Of a stretch of DNA of 64,000 nt, positions 54,238 to 64,000 are shown one piece after another. The DNA lies in assembly GCA_027061725.1 (NCBI GenBank), contig JAMOVG010000027.1, positions 2,416 to 66,415 on the forward strand, in the 5' to 3' direction. This stretch comes from Desulfobacteraceae bacterium. GTDB lineage: Bacteria > Desulfobacterota > Desulfobacteria > Desulfobacterales > JALSRD01. The notes beneath the pieces are model-generated. The model was not told where the DNA came from and did no database searches. It was given only the letters and a program-made list of their open reading frames with translations. The position numbers were made by a program, and so were the translations under genes. Every line of letters begins with the position of its first letter. The first letter of the stretch is position 1.

Positions 54238-55002
54238 TCAATTCGACTGCTCCGGTCCGGCGTCCTCTTGCAGGCGGCTTTCCCGGTCTTTCATGTAACG
54301 GTGAAACCGCAGCACGTGGCCCTGGGCCAGGATGCGCGCGCTCTCGGTATCGCCGCTTTCCACGGCATCGGCGATGTCGCACAGATCCTGGTAGTTTTCG
54401 GTCAGTTCGCGCTCCTCCATGGAAAGGAAGCGCTCGTAGTAGCGGTGAATGTTGTCGTGCACCGAGTGAAAGACGAATACGTAAACCGGGTTGTGGCTGA
54501 TGCGCGCCAGGGCCATGTGAAAACGCTTGTCCACCTCGATGAAGCCGTCCCGGTCCGGCGGGTTGCGGTGGATGTGGCCGCGGGCCTCGGCCAGCAGCGT
54601 CTTCAGGGCGGCGACGTCTTCGTCCGTGGCCCGCTGGGCCGCCAGGGCCGCCACGCTGCCCTCCATGCCCTCACGAAACTCGGTCAGGTGATTCAGCGAC
54701 ACGCGCCGGGAACGGATGAGCAACCCGAGGCTCTCAGTGGCCCGCTGGGGAGACACCTTCTTGACCACCGCCCCCCCGCGCACCCCCAGGCGAATCTCAA
54801 TGAGTCCCCGCTCTTCCAGCACGCGCAGCGCCTCGCGCAGCGTGCCGCGGCTGGTGTTGAACATTTCCTTGAGCTCTCTTTCGGACGGCAGCGTGTCGCC
54901 GGTTTCCAGTCGGCCCTTCAATATGGCCTCCTGGATCTGGTGCACCACGTCCTGGAAGATCCGGCTCTGGGATGCTTCACGAAACATCGCTTTTTCCGTC
55001 AT
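54238..55002 (-). CDS. GntR/FadR-family transcriptional regulator (FCD ligand domain)
   Basis: The N-terminal wHTH LPSERELKEMFNTSRGTLREALRVLEERGLI is followed by an all-helical FCD-like C-terminus. Confidence 0.85.
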   Translation of the reverse strand: MTEKAMFREASQSRIFQDVVHQIQEAILKGRLETGDTLPSERELKEMFNTSRGTLREALRVLEERGLIEIRLGVRGGAVVKKVSPQRATESLGLLIRSRRVSLNHLTEFREGMEGSVAALAAQRATDEDVAALKTLLAEARGHIHRNPPDRDGFIEVDKRFHMALARISHNPVYVFVFHSVHDNIHRYYERFLSMEERELTENYQDLCDIADAVESGDTESARILAQGHVLRFHRYMKDRESRLQEDAGPEQSN

Positions 55003-55300
55003 TTTTATCGCCTAATGGTTTTACCATTATTAAAGGCCTGTTTTTCTGCTGTCAAGCCAATTTTCCCAGCCTAATTGCAAACAACCGCTCACTTTAAGGG
55101 GACGCCACAACCGCAGCCTGACCGCCACTCGGACACCGGTTTACGCAAACCGCAAGGGCCCGGCATTTCACGGGCGCGGCCGCATCTTGAGCGGGGGCCT
55201 CTTGGTCTGACAGTTCGGCCACAAAAAGCGTTGACAGCCCGAACGGCGTGCGGTAATGGTCAAACCATTACAAATCTATTCTGGCTGTGGAGTGCGTCCC

Positions 55301-57388
55301 ATGAGCGATCAGCGTATTACCCGTCACCCCGTCCTGGAGATCCCCGCAAGAGAAGAAGTCACGTTCACCTTCAACGGCCGTCCCCTGAGGGGGGTTGCGG
55401 GCGAAATGATCGCCTCGGCCCTGATTGCCGCCGGCATCCACATTTTCGGGCACCACCCCAGGGATCACAGCCCCCAGGGCATCTTTTGCGCCAACGGCCA
55501 GTGTTCCCAGTGTCTGGTAATGGCCGACGGGCTGCCGGTCAAGGCCTGCATGACGCCGCTGGCCGCCGGCATGCGCGTCGAGCGCATCGAGGGGCTGCCG
55601 CGCATCCCGGAAGATGACCGGCCGCTGCCCGGTGCCGAGATTCCGGTGCACGAGGTACCGGTATTGATCATCGGGGCCGGCCCGGCCGGCCTGACGGCGG
55701 CCATCGAGCTGGGCAAACGGGGCGTAGAGACCCTGCTGGTGGACGACAAGGACCGCCTGGGCGGCAAACTGGTGCTCCAGACCCACAAGTTTTTCGGCTC
55801 GGTGGAGGACTCCTACGCCGGTACCCGCGGCTTCGAGATCGCCGAACGGCTGGCCGCCGAAATAGAACAGCTGCCCTCGGTGGCGGTCTGGCTCGGGAGC
55901 ACCGCCGTGGGCGTCTTTTCCGACCGGGTAGTGGGCATCGTGCGGGGCAACCGCTACTGCCGCATCCGGCCTCAAAAACTCATGGTGGCTACCGGCGCCC
56001 GCGAGAAGATGCTCTCTTTTCCGGGCAACACCCTGCCCGGGGTCTACGGCGCAGGGGCCTTCCAGACCCTGGTAAACCGCGACCTGGTTCGGTCGGCCGA
56101 ACGCGTGCTGGTGGTCGGCGGCGGCAACGTGGGACTGATCGCGGCCTACCACGCCGTGCAGGCCGGTATCCGGGTGGCGGCCCTGATCGAGGCCCTGCCG
56201 GAGGTGGGCGGCTACCGGGTGCACGCCGACAAGCTCACCCGCCTGGGTGTCCCCATTTTCACGCGTCACACCATCGTGGCGGCACACGGCCAAGACCATG
56301 TCGTATCCGCCACCACGGCCCGACTGGACGAGAAATGGCGGATCGTGCCGGGCACCGAAAAAACCTGGGAAGTGGACACGGTGCTGGTGGCCGTGGGGCT
56401 GGCCGAAGTCAACGAATTCATCCTCAAAGCCCGGGATTTCGGCATGCAGGTCTTCTCCGCCGGGGACGCCCAGGAGATCGCCGAGGCCTCGGCGGCCATG
56501 TTCACCGGCCGCATCGAGGGACTCAAGATCGCCGCATCCCTGGGACTGGCGGTGGGGGAGATCCCCGAAGACTGGTACCGCAAGGCCGAGGTGCTCAAAT
56601 CGCGGCCGGGCCGGATCCGGCAGGCCTCGCCGCCGCCCGCCCAAGAGGGTGTTTTTCCCGTCTTCCACTGCATCCAGGAGGTGCCCTGCAACCCGTGCAC
56701 CTCGGCCTGCCCCATCGGCGCCATCCACACCGAGAACGACACCATCACCGGCCTCCCCTACCGTGAAGAGGAAAAGGGCTGCACGGGCTGCCTGAACTGC
56801 GTGGCCATCTGCCCGGGGCTGGCCATCACGTTGGTCGATTACCGCAAGGATCCTGACCATCCTCTGGTGACCCTGCCCTGGGAGATCCGCCGCGAGACCG
56901 TGGAGGCCGGGCACACCGTGGCCGTCACGGACCGCGAAGGGGCGCTGCTGGGCCACTACGCGGTGCAGCGCGTGCGGGTCAAGAAGGAACACCCCCGAAC
57001 CCTGCTGGTGCAGGTCCGTCTGCCCGCGGAGCTGGCCAAGCGCGCAGCCGGCATCCAGGCGCCGGAGCCGGCCATCGACCCGCTGGAAGTTTACCAGCAG
57101 CAACCGCCGCCGGACGAGGCCGTGATCTGCCGCTGCGAGCGCATCACGGCCGGCGAGATCCGGGCGGCCATCCGCAGCGGGGTGCGCGACATGAACCAGC
57201 TCAAGGCCCTCACGCGCACCGGCATGGGCGCCTGCGGCTCCAAGACCTGCCGGCCCCTGGTGTGGCGCATCTTCCAGGAGGAGGGCATCGACCTCAAAGA
57301 GGTCACCGACCGCGTGGACAGGCCCCTTTTCGTGGAGGTCCCCATGGGGGCCTTTGCCGGCATCGACAGGAGGCGAGACCATGAATAA
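55301..57388 (+). CDS. Multi-cofactor oxidoreductase: N-terminal 2Fe-2S, FAD/NAD(P)-binding, 2x[4Fe-4S] ferredoxin and BFD-like 2Fe-2S modules (sarcosine-oxidase-alpha / OoxA / HcnA-B-like)
   Basis: The modules seen are CANGQCSQCLV...C, two Rossmann motifs (VLIIGAGPAGLTAA and VLVVGGGNVGLIAA), CNPCTSACP plus CTGCLNCVAICP, and CRCERITAGEIRAAIRSG...CGSKTC. I trimmed the start to ATG 55301. Confidence 0.75.
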   Translation: MSDQRITRHPVLEIPAREEVTFTFNGRPLRGVAGEMIASALIAAGIHIFGHHPRDHSPQGIFCANGQCSQCLVMADGLPVKACMTPLAAGMRVERIEGLPRIPEDDRPLPGAEIPVHEVPVLIIGAGPAGLTAAIELGKRGVETLLVDDKDRLGGKLVLQTHKFFGSVEDSYAGTRGFEIAERLAAEIEQLPSVAVWLGSTAVGVFSDRVVGIVRGNRYCRIRPQKLMVATGAREKMLSFPGNTLPGVYGAGAFQTLVNRDLVRSAERVLVVGGGNVGLIAAYHAVQAGIRVAALIEALPEVGGYRVHADKLTRLGVPIFTRHTIVAAHGQDHVVSATTARLDEKWRIVPGTEKTWEVDTVLVAVGLAEVNEFILKARDFGMQVFSAGDAQEIAEASAAMFTGRIEGLKIAASLGLAVGEIPEDWYRKAEVLKSRPGRIRQASPPPAQEGVFPVFHCIQEVPCNPCTSACPIGAIHTENDTITGLPYREEEKGCTGCLNCVAICPGLAITLVDYRKDPDHPLVTLPWEIRRETVEAGHTVAVTDREGALLGHYAVQRVRVKKEHPRTLLVQVRLPAELAKRAAGIQAPEPAIDPLEVYQQQPPPDEAVICRCERITAGEIRAAIRSGVRDMNQLKALTRTGMGACGSKTCRPLVWRIFQEEGIDLKEVTDRVDRPLFVEVPMGAFAGIDRRRDHE

Positions 57389-58535
57389 ATTCGATCTCAT
57401 CATCGTGGGCGCCGGTTCGGTGGGCGTACCCACGGCCCTGGCCTGCGCCGAGGCGGGCCTCAAGGCCCTGGTGCTGGACAGGCGCCCCTCGCCGGGACAG
57501 GGCGAGAACAAGCACGCCATCGGCGGCATCCGCGCCACGCACTCCGACCCGGCCAAGATTCTGGTCTGCCACCGCTCGCTGGAGATCTTCTCCACTTGGC
57601 AGGACCTGCACGGCGACGATATCGAGTGGCAGCGGGGCGGGTATGTGTTTCCCGTCTACCGGGAAGAAGAGGAAAGGCTGCTCAAGACCTTCCTGCCGGA
57701 ACAGAAAAAGTTCGGCCTCAACATCGACTTCGTCGACCCGCAGACCATCGCCTCCGTGGTGCCCGGCATCAACCCCGACGGGCTGCGGGGCGGGACGGTC
57801 TCTCCCGATGACGGTTCGGCCTCACCGCTGCTGGCCGTCAACGCCTTCTACCGCAGGGCCGTCCGGCTGGGCGTGGAATTCCGGTTCAACGTCCAGGTGC
57901 AGCAGATCCTCCGGGAAAAGGGCGCCGTCCAGGGAGTACGGACCTCTGCGGGCCGCTTTTCCGCGCCGGTAGTGGTCGATGCCGCCGGTGCCGACTCCCG
58001 GGAGCTCTCCGCCGCCCTGGGCTGCGACATCGCCGTGACCCCCGAATCCCACGAGGCCGGCATCAGCGAACCGGTGCAGATGTTCTGCCCCGCCATGGTG
58101 GTCGACCTGCGGCCGGCGCCGGGATCGCGCAACTACTATTTCTACCAGAACCGGCACGGCCAGGTGGTTTTCTGCATCACGCCGGAGCCGCCCCTGGTGG
58201 GCCACGACTACCGCGAGACGTCCGGTTTCCTGCCCCAGGTCTGCGCACGCATGGTGGACCTCATGCCGCGGCTGAAAAACCTGCGGGTGCGCCGGGTGTG
58301 GCGCGGGCTTTACCCCATGACAGCCGACGGCGTCCCGCTGGTGGGCTGGAACCGGGACGCTTCCGGGCTGCTGCACGCCGTGGGCATGTGCGGTCAGGGG
58401 TTCATGCTTGGCCCCGGCCTCGGTGAACTGCTGGCGCGCATGATCACAGGCGCCTCCACCGCCGACGACCGCGTTGTACTGGCGGGTTTTTCCCTTTACC
58501 GCGACCTCACTTGTGGCATGGAGGCCCTGAAGTAG
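57381..58535 (+). CDS. FAD-dependent oxidoreductase (DAO family; sarcosine oxidase beta / proline dehydrogenase beta-like)
   Basis: The motif FDLIIVGAGSVGVPTALACAEAG is present. Its start overlaps the end of the upstream gene. Confidence 0.8.
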   Translation: MNKFDLIIVGAGSVGVPTALACAEAGLKALVLDRRPSPGQGENKHAIGGIRATHSDPAKILVCHRSLEIFSTWQDLHGDDIEWQRGGYVFPVYREEEERLLKTFLPEQKKFGLNIDFVDPQTIASVVPGINPDGLRGGTVSPDDGSASPLLAVNAFYRRAVRLGVEFRFNVQVQQILREKGAVQGVRTSAGRFSAPVVVDAAGADSRELSAALGCDIAVTPESHEAGISEPVQMFCPAMVVDLRPAPGSRNYYFYQNRHGQVVFCITPEPPLVGHDYRETSGFLPQVCARMVDLMPRLKNLRVRRVWRGLYPMTADGVPLVGWNRDASGLLHAVGMCGQGFMLGPGLGELLARMITGASTADDRVVLAGFSLYRDLTCGMEALK

Positions 58536-58549
58536 ATTCCGATTTTCCC

Positions 58550-58578
58550 TTGACACAACGTGGCACTTTGCATACATT
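58550..58578 (+). promoter_or_regulatory. Sigma-70-like promoter candidate (TTGACA-17 nt-TACATT) upstream of the Sec-peptide gene
   Basis: TTGACA is at 58550-58555 and TACATT at 58573-58578. It sits in the intergenic gap after the stop at 58535 and would give a leader of about 200 nt. Confidence 0.45.
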
Positions 58579-58783
58579 ATATTTGAAGCGAAGTTTTCCG
58601 ACCAGCGAGATTTCACAATGCCCCGTGCGGGCGGTCCCCTAATTTCTCTGTTTTCGGTGCTTTTTCAAAAGTTCCCCAACGAATGATGCCAAACACACTG
58701 GCCGCAGTGTCTCAGGGCAGCCGTCTCCACGCGGATCCTGAAAGGCCGTTTCCACCCCTAACCCTTTGGAACAGGAGGGCACA

Positions 58784-59137
58784 ATGGACAGCAGGGATAT
58801 CAAGAAATACCTTGCCGGATTGAGCATTGCCGGATTGATCAGCCTGGGCGGCTTCACGCTGCCGGGCGCGATGGCCGGCAGCAGCTGAGGTGCACAACCT
58901 AGTGCAGGTAGCACTAAAGTTGAAAAGCCCGCATCGGGCAGCAGCTGAGGCGGCCAAGGCAGCGGTGCCGTGAGCACCGAAGAGACCACGAAGGAAGCCG
59001 AGGAAGCCGCCGAAGAAGTCCAGAAAGAGTCCGGGAAAAGCGGCTGAGGGTCCAGCACCGACAGTGCAGTTGGCACTGACACGAAAAAAGAAGAAGACAA
59101 CAAGAAAGAATCCGGGAAAAGCGGCTGAGGCGGATGA
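58784..59137 (+). CDS. Putative multi-selenocysteine RiPP precursor peptide (SbtA-like), 117 codons with four in-frame UGA
   Basis: AGGAGG at 58773-58778 is followed 5 nt later by ATG 58784. In-frame TGA codons occur at 58886, 58946, 59045 and 59126, all in an S/G-S/G-U-G context. No TAA or TAG occurs in frame until 59285. A SECIS-like hairpin follows each UGA. The N-terminus is signal/leader-like (MDSRDIKKYLAGLSIAGLISLGGFTLPGAMA). A radical SAM/SPASM gene lies immediately downstream. Confidence 0.6.
58900..58916 (+). promoter_or_regulatory. SECIS-like hairpin 1 (UAGUGC-AGGUA-GCACUA)
   Basis: It is a 17-nt hairpin starting exactly 11 nt after UGA-1. It can be extended by CAAC/GUUG (58894-58924). 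Confidence 0.5.
58963..58979 (+). promoter_or_regulatory. SECIS-like hairpin 2 (CGGUGC-CGUGA-GCACCG)
   Basis: It is a 17-nt hairpin starting 14 nt after UGA-2. It shares the GUGC-N5-GCAC core of hairpins 1 and 3. Confidence 0.5.
59022..59130 (+). repeat. 28-nt direct repeat pair (1 mismatch) carrying UGA-3 and UGA-4, period 81 nt
   Basis: AGAAAGA[G/A]TCCGGGAAAAGCGGCTGAGG occurs at 59022-59049 and 59103-59130. A separate 14-nt exact pair GGCAGCAGCTGAGG at 58877-58890 and 58937-58950 carries UGA-1 and UGA-2 with a period of 60 nt. Confidence 0.9.
59062..59078 (+). promoter_or_regulatory. SECIS-like hairpin 3 (CAGUGC-AGUUG-GCACUG)
   Basis: It is a 17-nt perfect hairpin starting 14 nt after UGA-3. 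Confidence 0.5.
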
Positions 59138-59142
59138 TGTTA

Positions 59143-59161
59143 CCGGCGCCGGCGGCGCCGG
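59143..59161 (+). promoter_or_regulatory. GC hairpin 4 (CCGGCGCC-GGC-GGCGCCGG) after UGA-4
   Basis: It has an 8-bp perfect stem and starts 14 nt after UGA-4. Its core sequence differs from hairpins 1-3. Confidence 0.4.
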
Positions 59162-59239
59162 AAAAACACACTCAGCAAAACGGCCGGTTTGCCAGATTCC
59201 GCTGCGGTCGACGGATTCCCGTTCGGATGATGTTTGCCA

Positions 59240-59272
59240 GGAGCCGGCGTCCCCCCGGGGGATCCCGGCTCC
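59240..59272 (+). terminator. Strong hairpin followed by CCUGUUUU, between the precursor and maturase genes (possible leaky terminator)
   Basis: GGAGCCGG...CCGGCTCC forms the outer stem and TCCCC/GGGGA the inner stem. TGTTTT follows and the maturase ATG lies 41 nt downstream. Confidence 0.4.
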
Positions 59273-59312
59273 CCTGTTTTGCAATAACGCCACTCGCCTA
59301 CCAGAGGCCCTC

Positions 59313-60887
59313 ATGAAACCGCTGCCCGATGAGATCCGGTCCGCCTACCCGGTCTGCAGCCGGCTGCTGGCCGAAGAACCGCTGCCCCCGGACGGGCCGG
59401 CACCCACCGTCGAAGACCTGCCCCGAAGGCTCGCCGCCACGCCTGCGGCACTGAAACGCCACCCCTACCTGGCCGACCTGGCCCGCATCGAACAGGCCAT
59501 TCACAAACTGAGCACGGACCCGCCGGGCATCCCCTCCCGCGTGGACCGGCTGCGTCTCAACCCCGCGCTGGTGCTGCTGCCGGTGTCCTGGCAGCGCCTG
59601 CCGGAACGCCTCCAGGACGATCGGGCCGCCCCGGCACCCGTGCCAAACGGCTTCGTGCTGGTCTGGAAAGCGCCCGGCTCAGGGCGCGTTCGCGCCGCCA
59701 CGGCCGACGGGCACGACCTGCTGGCGCTGAAAATCGTCAGCGAGGCAATCGCCCCCCGGCAGGCGGCCGAGGATGGCGGTGTGTCCCTGGGTACCATCGA
59801 CAACATTCTTTACGCCGCCAGCCAGCGCGGCCTGCTGCTGGCACCCCCCTCGCGCATCGTACGCCCACCGGCGTTCGGCCGGGAAGCCGTCGACGGCGAC
59901 CAATTCCGCGTCGCCAGGTGTTTCACCCTCCAGTGGCACATTACCCAGGCCTGCGACCTGCACTGCCGCCACTGCTACGACCGCAGCGACCGCCAGCCCC
60001 TGCCGCTGGTAGAGGCCTTGCGGGTGCTGGACGATCTCTACGATTTCTGCCAGCGAATGCACGTTTACGGCCAGGTCACCTTCACCGGTGGAAACCCCTT
60101 GCTCTACCCCCATTTTGACGAGGTCTACCGCCAGAGCGCGGAGCGCGGCTTCCTGACCGCCGTGCTGGGCAACCCCATGCCACGCCGGCGCATCGAAACC
60201 CTGCTACGCATCCAGGATCTCGAGTTCTACCAGGTCAGCCTGGAGGGCCTGGCCGAACACAACGACTACATTCGCGGCCCCGGCCATTTTCAGCGCACCA
60301 TGGCTTTCCTGGACGTGCTGCGTGAGCTGAACGTCAGCACCATGGTCATGCTGACCCTGACCGATGCCAACATGGGCCAGGTACTGCCGCTGGCCGAACG
60401 GCTGCGCGGGCGCACCGGCGTGTTCACCTTCAACCGGCTCTCGCCCGTGGGCGAAGGCGCCGACCTGTCGCCGGCCGGCACCGGGCGCTACCGCGCCTTC
60501 CTGGAAGACTACCTGCGGGCCGCGCGCAACAATCCCGCCATGCGCCTCAAGGACAACCTCTTCAACATCCTGCTGCACGAGAGGGGGGAGCCCTTTTTCG
60601 GCGGCTGCGCCGGCTTTGGCTGCGGGGCGGCCTTCAACTTCGTCTCCCTGTTGCCCGACGGCGAAGTGCACGCCTGCCGCAAACTGCCCTCGCTGATCGG
60701 CAACATCCGGGAGCGTTCGCTCTACGACATCTACCGCGACGCACCGGCCCGGCGATTCCGCGCCGGCAGCAAGGCCTGCCGCGGCTGCGCCATCCGGCCG
60801 GTGTGCGGCGGGTGCCTGGCCGTGAGCCACGGCAGCGGGCTGAACATCTTCAGGGAACGCGACCCTTACTGCTTCATGGAAAAATAG
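59313..60887 (+). CDS. Radical SAM/SPASM-domain peptide maturase with roughly 200-aa N-terminal extension (SbtM-like)
   Basis: I trimmed the start to ATG 59313. The CX3CX2C motif CDLHCRHC is at 59952-59975 and TFTGGNPLL is present. The C-terminal SPASM-type Cys motifs are GGCAGFGCGA, HACRKL and CRGCAIRPVCGGC. Confidence 0.8.
   Translation: MKPLPDEIRSAYPVCSRLLAEEPLPPDGPAPTVEDLPRRLAATPAALKRHPYLADLARIEQAIHKLSTDPPGIPSRVDRLRLNPALVLLPVSWQRLPERLQDDRAAPAPVPNGFVLVWKAPGSGRVRAATADGHDLLALKIVSEAIAPRQAAEDGGVSLGTIDNILYAASQRGLLLAPPSRIVRPPAFGREAVDGDQFRVARCFTLQWHITQACDLHCRHCYDRSDRQPLPLVEALRVLDDLYDFCQRMHVYGQVTFTGGNPLLYPHFDEVYRQSAERGFLTAVLGNPMPRRRIETLLRIQDLEFYQVSLEGLAEHNDYIRGPGHFQRTMAFLDVLRELNVSTMVMLTLTDANMGQVLPLAERLRGRTGVFTFNRLSPVGEGADLSPAGTGRYRAFLEDYLRAARNNPAMRLKDNLFNILLHERGEPFFGGCAGFGCGAAFNFVSLLPDGEVHACRKLPSLIGNIRERSLYDIYRDAPARRFRAGSKACRGCAIRPVCGGCLAVSHGSGLNIFRERDPYCFMEK

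Positions 60888-61001: not shown

Positions 61002-64000
<2,999 letters not shown>

Follow-up and report, generated by a model that had tools for sequence, protein, structure and literature searches.

A two-gene sbtA-sbtM locus with four in-frame UGA codons, each followed by a putative selenocysteine insertion element, in an uncultured Desulfobacterota bacterium

The 64,000-nucleotide stretch of contig JAMOVG010000027.1 analysed here (the window), which derives from a Desulfobacteraceae bacterium, carries near its end a short gene with four in-frame UGA codons, followed by a gene for a radical S-adenosylmethionine (SAM) enzyme. With a probability that we would set at roughly 85%, the pair is a two-gene sbtA-sbtM cassette, and a regular member of a known, curated family of thio(seleno)oxazole RiPPs (ribosomally synthesised and post-translationally modified peptides). 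The locus itself adds one more member to this family. What is new is the sequence-level support for a selenocysteine insertion sequence (SECIS) at each UGA, the occurrence of several selenocysteine (Sec, U in peptide motifs) residues per peptide as the norm, and an anatomy that combines a signal peptide-like leader with the lack of a conserved exporter.

The sbtA-sbtM cassette

The features which make up the cassette are the following.

58773-58778, + strand: Shine-Dalgarno sequence AGGAGG, 5 nt before ATG 58784, read from the sequence
58784-59137, + strand: sbtA with its stop codon, predicted precursor of 117 residues, Sec at positions 35, 55, 88 and 115 (translation with TGA read as U)
58784-58876, + strand: N-terminal 31 residues MDSRDIKKYLAGLSIAGLISLGGFTLPGAMA, the family-defining 'leader' (TIGR04081 on residues 1-27; by inspection)
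58886-58888, + strand: predicted Sec codon 1 (UGA), context G-S-S-U-G-A
58946-58948, + strand: predicted Sec codon 2 (UGA), context G-S-S-U-G-G
59045-59047, + strand: predicted Sec codon 3 (UGA), context K-S-G-U-G-S
59126-59128, + strand: predicted Sec codon 4 (UGA), context K-S-G-U-G-G, three codons before the stop
59012-59130, + strand: two copies of a K-E-S-G-K-S-G-U-G block (59012-59049 and 59093-59130), spacing 81, 87% identity over 38 nt
59135-59137, + strand: TGA assigned as the true stop of sbtA, inside the spacer of Sec codon 4 and its putative SECIS, 5 nt before hairpin 4
59313-60887, + strand: sbtM, radical SAM/SPASM maturase of 524 residues (TIGR04082, Radical_SAM, SPASM)

The sbtA frame has TGA at codons 35, 55, 88 and 115, then at codons 118 (59135) and 149 (59228), the first TAA being codon 168. 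A first-pass annotation, made from the letters alone, had listed the AGGAGG, the ATG, each of these TGAs, a run of 167 codons free of TAA and TAG, and the peptide read through the UGAs; re-reading and translation from ATG 58784 reproduced all of them exactly. The two duplicated in-phase blocks in which it had placed the UGAs were likewise recovered by a repeat search. The pair 58877-58897/58937-58957 lies at a spacing of 60, with the first 14 nt identical, and the copies 59012-59049 and 59093-59130 differ by one base within their last 28 nt. The latter evidently represent a duplicated C-terminal recognition motif along with its UGA.

Read with U as C, the sbtA peptide scores 43.4 bits (cut-off 30.5) against NCBIfam TIGR04081, the 'SbtA family thio(seleno)oxazole RiPP natural product precursor', its residues 1-27 covering positions 1-27 of the 27 of the model. 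The product of the next gene scores 682.5 bits (cut-off 350, E 3.9e-205) against TIGR04082, the 'thio(seleno)oxazole modification radical SAM maturase SbtM', residues 12-521 aligning to positions 2-516 of 516. Since both genes exceed the curated cut-offs, the family named in the first-pass annotation is the appropriate one. The description of the neighbour as a radical SAM/SPASM enzyme is also correct, as Radical_SAM (PF04055, residues 210-361) and SPASM (PF13186, residues 437-492) were both found in it. The CX3CX2C motif CDLHCRHC (C214, C218, C221) is invariant among 24 homologues, and so are the SPASM cysteines C432, C437, C455, C489, C492, C498, C501 and C520. The end of sbtA and sbtM are separated by 175 nt, on the same strand. 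The SbtM family is large (>3,200 proteins at E < 1e-30), and the nearest members come from uncultured Desulfobulbaceae and Desulfobacteraceae, the closest species representative being CAYZCL010000057.

The motif of the SbtA family has been tabulated as SGUG (2026 selenoproteome review), and the contexts found in the window (SSUGA, SSUGG, SGUGS and SGUGG) are of this S-G-U-G type, for which the family motif can be written x-S-G-U-[GS]-[GA]. The locus shares with the SbtA/SbtM system (TIGR04081/TIGR04082; earlier 'selenobiotic') the order sbtA then sbtM, the SGUG context, a SECIS directly after each UGA, and a radical SAM/SPASM enzyme that is extended by about 200 residues at its N-terminus. It differs in nothing of kind; it carries four Sec versus two in the example of the 2026 review, and its host belongs to an uncultured Desulfobulbales/Desulfobacterales-like lineage, not to Geobacter.

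A public contig encodes an identical SbtM, and its gene calls include a 34-aa product with Pfam PF27804 (GSU1558_StbA-like). The prediction that no ORF (open reading frame) caller would report the gene is thus half true: a truncated product is already called, and an NCBI naming model exists. Annotation pipelines that end at the first UGA report a 34-residue stub for sbtA. A protein database search with the full sbtA peptide (U as C) gave no match, probably because public gene calls do not extend past the first UGA, and because of the shortness and low complexity of the query.

A hairpin downstream of each UGA

The view that each of the four UGAs has its own SECIS is strongly supported. Folding of the 55 nt located 3' of each UGA identified the following hairpins.

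58900-58916, + strand: putative SECIS hairpin 1, UAGUGC-AGGUA-GCACUA, starting 14 nt from the U of UGA 58886; encodes S-A-G-S-T
58963-58979, + strand: putative SECIS hairpin 2, CGGUGC-CGUGA-GCACCG, starting 17 nt from UGA 58946
59062-59078, + strand: putative SECIS hairpin 3, CAGUGC-AGUUG-GCACUG, starting 17 nt from UGA 59045
59143-59161, + strand: putative SECIS hairpin 4, CCGGCGCC-GGC-GGCGCCGG, an inverted repeat in the 3' untranslated region, starting 17 nt from UGA 59126

All have stems of 6-8 bp and a G-rich apical loop, start 14-17 nt from the U, and have the loop centre 22-26 nt from it. Hairpins 1-3 lie within the coding sequence, hairpin 4 beyond the stop. The 55 nt after UGA 59126, which hold hairpin 4, fold at -22.8 kcal/mol (z = -3.1), and 0/200 shuffles were as stable. 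The peptide stretches S-A-G-S-T, G-A-V-S-T and S-A-V-G-T recur because they are dictated by the hairpins of the coding region.

A covariance model was built on 34 sites from other genomes, leaving out the sequences of the window and of its two closest relatives (loci L001 and L002), and the whole window was searched with it unfiltered. The model matches exactly the four UGAs, at 27-34 bits (33.7 for the first, match 58886-58928; 29.4, 27.2 and 28.7 for the second, third and fourth) and E values of 2e-5 to 5e-4, the next best score in the 128 kb searched being 13.8 bits. TGAs 59135 and 59228 are not matched by the same model. The four UGAs singled out in this way are also all in S-[GS]-U-G context. 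The earlier remark that the UGAs are not random holds well, and the UGA pattern in sbtA is far beyond chance. Rfam was searched with the whole window at gathering thresholds, and with 58700-59320 at E values of up to 10; no meaningful match emerged, and none of the curated SECIS families covers the sbtA hairpins.

The hairpins are a property of the family. The homologue set included 80 SbtM loci from species-representative genomes, all six frames of which were scanned, taking TGA as U. Just upstream of SbtM, about 70 of these 80 other loci have an ORF with a leader of the SbtA type; the conservation of UGA/Cys columns and the synteny with the radical SAM gene, which the first-pass annotation had proposed to look for, were observed in about 70 genomes. 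Cultivated relatives with the cassette include Desulfogranum japonicum DSM 18378 (L020) and Desulfosarcina alkanivorans PL12 (L071). The sbtA ORFs of 70 homologues comprise 198 UGA sites. At 189 of them a perfect hairpin with a stem of 5 bp or more begins 11-23 nt 3' of the UGA, and the loop holds GG or GU in 185 of these 189 cases. Other in-frame codons reach 30% and 12% by the two measures, shuffled sequences 17% and 6%. Centred on the loop, the consensus reads ..G[U/C]GC-[A/C]-G-[G/U]-[U/G]-N-GC[A/G]C.., with G at loop position -1 in 184/188 sites. The loop centre is 22 or 25 nt from the UGA in 142/188 sites, and the spacing between UGA and hairpin keeps codon phase. At the stem positions U-A occurs 104 times, C-G 76 times, and no unpaired case was counted. 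The context of the UGA is conserved as well: of the 198 sites, 188 have S at position -2, 164 have G at -1, and 191 carry either G or S at +1.

Covariation was assessed on a MAFFT alignment of 40 diverse sites, which was blind to structure and in which the sites aligned in register. RNAalifold predicted the same 6-bp helix, with compensatory changes at 6/6 pairs. Paired cells amount to 94.6% versus 73.9% in shuffles, a level reached by 0/500 of the latter, and 64 cells show double changes versus 13.7 expected; slid partners pair at 20-48%. The switch between U-A and C-G associates a synonymous Ser change (AGU to AGC) with a Thr to Ala replacement on the opposite strand of the stem, and this coupling implies that the constraint acts on the RNA, not on the peptide. 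At the C-terminal Sec sites of the homologues a hairpin of the same kind resides in non-coding sequence, and conservation of a peptide motif cannot explain it there.

In bacteria, the SECIS (as that of E. coli fdhF) is a stem-loop located just 3' of the UGA, which has a conserved G/U in the apical loop and is bound by SelB. The sbtA hairpins resemble such elements in lying directly downstream of the UGA, within the coding sequence or just past the stop, in the near-invariant G followed by G/U in the loop, and in the fixed codon-phase spacing. They differ in that the stems are very short (6-8 bp), four independent copies occur within 280 nt of one mRNA, and Rfam provides no match. The eukaryotic selenoprotein P is a secreted multi-Sec protein, in which two SECIS elements of the 3' untranslated region serve all UGAs with eukaryotic factors. 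Decoding of several UGAs in one frame is a common trait; in contrast, each sbtA UGA has its own adjacent hairpin, and the two show no homology. Spanning 17-19 nt, the sbtA hairpins provide a bacterial SECIS model that is compact and covaries well, and explain the conserved S-A-G-S-T-like stretches of the spacers.

Pairs of UGAs only 3-6 codons apart were noticed in the sbtA ORFs of L039, L046, L059, L074, L079 and L047, as in S-S-U-S-G-K-T-S-U-S-G or S-G-U-S-G-U-S-G. In the three pairs inspected (L039, L046, L059) the first UGA is without a hairpin of its own at the canonical distance, and one SECIS may serve two UGAs.

Translation past the UGAs

Translation of sbtA through four UGA codons is strongly supported by the way in which the gene has changed among relatives. 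L001 and L002, in which SbtM is 88% and 79% identical, respectively, keep all four UGAs. Comparison of sbtA with the two revealed five indel runs (3, 24, 12, 48 and 12), all multiples of three, also beyond the first UGA, and the substitutions relative to L002 are distributed as 7/5/20 over the three codon positions. Cys takes the place of Sec at site 3 of L077, in the all-Cys L080, and in nine loci ending with ...KKAIEGC. In this last sub-variant (L007, L009, L014, L017, L023, L025, L027, L036, L037) the C-terminal Cys of ...K-K-A-I-E-G-C replaces the usual K-S-G-U-S-G site, and the two N-proximal Sec sites are retained. The SbtA-like ORF of L080 (2319 onwards) carries tandem K-T-K-T-S-C-S-G units and a lipobox leader, and is broken by a run of N (an assembly gap) within the repeat region.

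The TGA at 59135 lies 9 nt after Sec codon 4. Terminal TGAs are found 6-9 nt past the last Sec codon across the family, 24 homologues ending with a TGA in the spacer, and the remaining ones have TAA or TAG at the equivalent end position. We conclude that TGA 59135 would end translation, giving a predicted product of 117 residues, because it falls between Sec codon 4 and the putative SECIS of the latter, at too short a distance from the hairpin. An 11-nt exact direct repeat, CGGATGATGTT (59131-59141 and 59224-59234, + strand), spans the sbtA stop TGA and the following in-frame TGA. Found in two copies, and probably due to chance, it was set aside as a signal.

Indirect support for the decoding of Sec by the host comes from another gene of the window.

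12815-12507, - strand: gene of an IscA/HesB-family selenoprotein, UGA at 12719-12717, Sec in E-G-G-U-G-G (NF038090, 112.6 bits, cut-off 85)

A second UGA-recoded gene had been reported in this region, and the score attained by its product leaves it as a real minus-strand IscA/HesB selenoprotein gene. Its hairpin, GGCUC-UGGAU-GAGCC, has a shape unlike that of the SbtA hairpins, and its UGA is not matched by the SbtA-trained SECIS model. The model must consequently be regarded as family-specific, and not as a general SECIS detector.

Number of selenocysteines and duplication of sites

Among the 70 SbtM-linked SbtA-like ORFs, 20 have two Sec, 37 three, nine four, one five (L040) and one six (L059), the other two being mis-parsed or all-Cys and therefore outside these classes. 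Two to six Sec are normal for the surveyed SbtA peptides, and the four sites of the window are unexceptional. The idea that the locus is a repeat-expanded member, or a relative, of the family is accordingly right as to membership, and the expansion is no special rarity. In the branch of the family found in Desulfobulbales/Desulfobacterales three to six Sec are the rule, three being typical and six the maximum. The 2026 review tabulates two Sec for TIGR04081, and states that prokaryotic selenoproteins carry one Sec, a small subset two or three. Published summaries understate the Sec number of the SbtA family.

In the usual plan of SbtA, two sites closely follow the leader, and a C-terminal one has the form K-x-x-G-K-S-G-U-[GS]-[GS]. 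In the window, the extra site combines a copied C-terminal motif, K-E-S-G-K-S-G-U-G, with a SECIS of the internal type. Analogous duplications, different in sequence, were found in L004/L006, L067, L040 and L059, and indicate that site expansion is recurrent.

Leader, export and conserved neighbours

The N-terminus of sbtA had been described as a signal or leader peptide. By inspection, it has the anatomy of a signal peptide, in which an n-region with KK is followed by a hydrophobic core and by A-M-A as cleavage motif; it looks like a genuine signal peptide of the general secretory pathway, and a pure RiPP-leader reading fits less well. In most homologues the leader ends with A-x-A (AHA, AMA or AQA, mostly A-H-A). 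In 18/70 homologues (as L062, L070, L071, L072 and L078) a lipobox-like [LVA]-x-[GAS]-C is found in place of A-x-A, which suggests that the products of these variants are membrane-anchored lipoproteins. A tandem 15-nt repeat, TTGCCGGATTGAGCA / TTGCCGGATTGATCA, 93% identical (58812-58841, + strand), encodes A-G-L-S-I and A-G-L-I-S, the two halves of the leader's hydrophobic core, and A-G-L..A-G-L is found family-wide.

An all-against-all BLASTP comparison of the ORFs flanking sbtAM in 81 loci revealed no third conserved gene. Only shadow ORFs of sbtM and lineage-specific neighbours were recovered, the best non-SbtM cluster occurring in 11/81 loci.

Proposed product and alternatives

One SbtM, from Geobacter lovleyi, has been characterised (Lewis et al. 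2021, as cited in PMC13188914 and PMC11002830). According to the account in PMC11002830, SbtM takes 4 H from Cys and Sec substrates, the Cys product being a thiooxazole by nuclear magnetic resonance, and SECIS elements located 3' of TGA had already been noted in SbtA precursors. On the model of the characterised enzyme we infer that the SbtM of the window turns the Sec residues of its SbtA into selenooxazoles.

The following sequence of events can be envisaged. SelB would deliver Sec-tRNA at each of the four UGAs via the adjacent hairpin, translation stopping at TGA 59135. SbtM would oxidise each Sec (-4 H), and ring closure with the preceding backbone carbonyl would give a selenooxazole, as expected from the characterised family member. 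Residues 1-31 would be cleaved off after A-M-A as a secretory signal peptide, and the modified chain of 86 residues, rich in Gly, Ser, Glu and Lys, would be exported by the general secretory pathway, without a dedicated transporter. Once outside, four selenol-bearing heterocycles could bind soft metals or take part in redox chemistry, by analogy with the 5-thiooxazole bufferins and captophorins. The number of sites would grow through duplication of a self-contained unit made of recognition motif, UGA and SECIS.

There is about one chance in three that the product is what this scheme predicts, an exported polypeptide with several selenooxazoles, left uncut and serving to bind soft metals or to buffer redox. 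Its extension to the whole family is to be taken as tentative: SbtA products would be whole polypeptides with 2-6 selenooxazole rings, exported by the secretory or lipoprotein route; in the periplasm or on the cell surface they would chelate soft metals or buffer redox, and would not be diffusible antibiotics, with a valency set by cassette duplication. Were this true, SbtA would be the selenium-based, radical SAM-made counterpart of bufferins and captophorins, and SbtA peptides would be the most Sec-dense bacterial proteins known, above the maximum of 2-3 Sec of the 2026 review. A leader resembling a signal peptide, the lack of a conserved exporter or protease, and the work on thiooxazole metallophores together make the functional hypothesis concrete and testable.

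Bufferins are long RiPP precursors with secretory signal peptides, in which Cys residues give 5-thiooxazoles and copper is bound in the periplasm (PMC11626156). Fontiphorin has seven 5-thiooxazole rings, and a modified SbtM substrate shows the same absorbance at 305 nm (PMC12668002). SbtA shares with bufferins and captophorins a precursor of ~100 residues, the lack of a dedicated exporter, and several Cys or Sec residues that would lead to the same type of ring, up to seven per peptide; its N-terminus resembles, by inspection, their secretory-type signal peptide. The differences are marked. Bufferins and captophorins are made by an MNIO/DUF692 non-haem iron enzyme with a DUF2063 partner, whereas an unrelated radical SAM/SPASM enzyme resides in the SbtA locus; the ring chalcogen is sulfur in the former and would be selenium in SbtA; BufA1 is a folded small protein, whereas SbtA is of low complexity and has no metal-stress gene context. 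As the adjacent enzyme is of the radical SAM/SPASM type, the locus of the window is no member of the bufferin/captophorin group, and would be a functional analogue only.

Several points weigh against the interpretation given here, some on the side of decoding, others on that of the product. The 40 sites used for covariation were hand-picked for diversity among the 198, and the all-site counts are less biased. None of selA, selB, selC and selD lies within the 64-kb window, a search of its six frames by regular expressions for SelA, SelB and SelD signature motifs gave nothing relevant, and ARAGORN detected no tRNA, and no tRNA-Sec, within it. The chemistry of SbtM, in the account of PMC11002830, refers to one enzyme, that of Geobacter lovleyi, acting on a minimal peptide, and to a mass loss only for the Sec substrate. 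SbtM differs in enzyme class from the bufferin-making enzymes, so that metal binding by SbtA is argued from analogy alone, and the genes next to the cassette (FAD [flavin adenine dinucleotide]-dependent oxidoreductases, a GntR regulator, a pyruvate:ferredoxin oxidoreductase) give no hint of metal stress. The leader region could, moreover, be needed by SbtM as a recognition leader.

The first-pass annotation had regarded the gene as a multi-core RiPP precursor. In the original 'selenobiotic' or 'selenobacteriocin' idea, the modified chain of such a precursor would be cut into short one-ring selenooxazole peptides, released as antibiotics. Modular repeats, with 2-6 sites set between variable low-complexity spacers, are in keeping with such a role, the duplicated K-E-S-G-K-S-G-U-G block suits a repeated unit, and the family is still named 'Selenobacteriocin' in the 2026 review. 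Yet, no protease, ATP-binding cassette exporter or immunity gene conserved beside sbtAM was found in the 81 loci, and no nearby protease or transporter backs the cutting of the window product into several peptides. In addition, the secretory/lipoprotein-like N-terminus implies export of the whole chain, with membrane anchoring in 18/70 homologues, and the spacers are without a conserved cleavage motif, much of their conservation being due to the SECIS hairpins. Release of short antibiotic peptides is therefore unlikely.

Alternatively, SbtA may be an exported selenoprotein that works through its free selenols, for instance by storing or trafficking selenium or by buffering redox, with SbtM modifying only some of the sites, or none, in vivo. 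The high density of Sec is compatible with this hypothesis, and so is the fact that the chemistry of SbtM, as summarised in PMC11002830, is demonstrated only on a minimal peptide in vitro. The strict adjacency of sbtA and sbtM, with an SbtA-like ORF immediately preceding SbtM on the same strand in roughly 60 of the 80 other loci, the S-G-U-[GS] context common to all sites, which suits the recognition motif of a single enzyme, and the persistence of SbtM beside the variants with a C-terminal Cys speak against it, and make it quite improbable. That the UGAs are ordinary stops, the product a 34-residue peptide as output by automatic callers, and the downstream frame and hairpins a non-coding regulatory RNA, can be practically dismissed, since indels past the first UGA are in frame and substitutions biased to third positions, the S-G-U-G context and a lysine-rich C-terminal tail followed by a stop are kept in ~70 genomes, Cys codons stand for UGA in some homologues, hairpins and UGAs are spaced in codon phase, and SbtA is already curated as a selenoprotein family.

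Other elements in the window

Additional genes and signals surround the exported-selenopeptide cassette proposed above.

54238-55002, - strand: gene of a GntR-family regulator, upstream of sbtA
55256-58535, + strand: two FAD-dependent oxidoreductase genes directly upstream of sbtA, with products of 710 aa (similar to the sarcosine-oxidase alpha subunit) and 393 aa (similar to ThiO or the SoxB beta subunit)
58550-58578, + strand: sigma-70-like promoter candidate TTGACA-17-TACATT, about 200 nt upstream of sbtA (consensus match only)
59240-59281, + strand: GC-rich inverted repeat with 16-nt arms, followed by the T run CUGUUUUG, between sbtA and sbtM; terminator/attenuator candidate
61074-64000, + strand: pyruvate:ferredoxin oxidoreductase-like gene of at least 975 codons, starting 187 nt past sbtM and running off the window (by reading the translation)

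The FAD-dependent oxidoreductases and the GntR regulator are not conserved next to sbtAM elsewhere. The promoter candidate has 10/12 consensus matches and is the sole such site in 58400-59500, the mean in shuffled sequences being 0.1. A terminator-like site is present in the gap between sbtA and sbtM in 35/61 loci, and would be in keeping with more precursor being made than enzyme. The repeat at 59240-59281 may be an attenuator which sets the ratio of precursor to enzyme.

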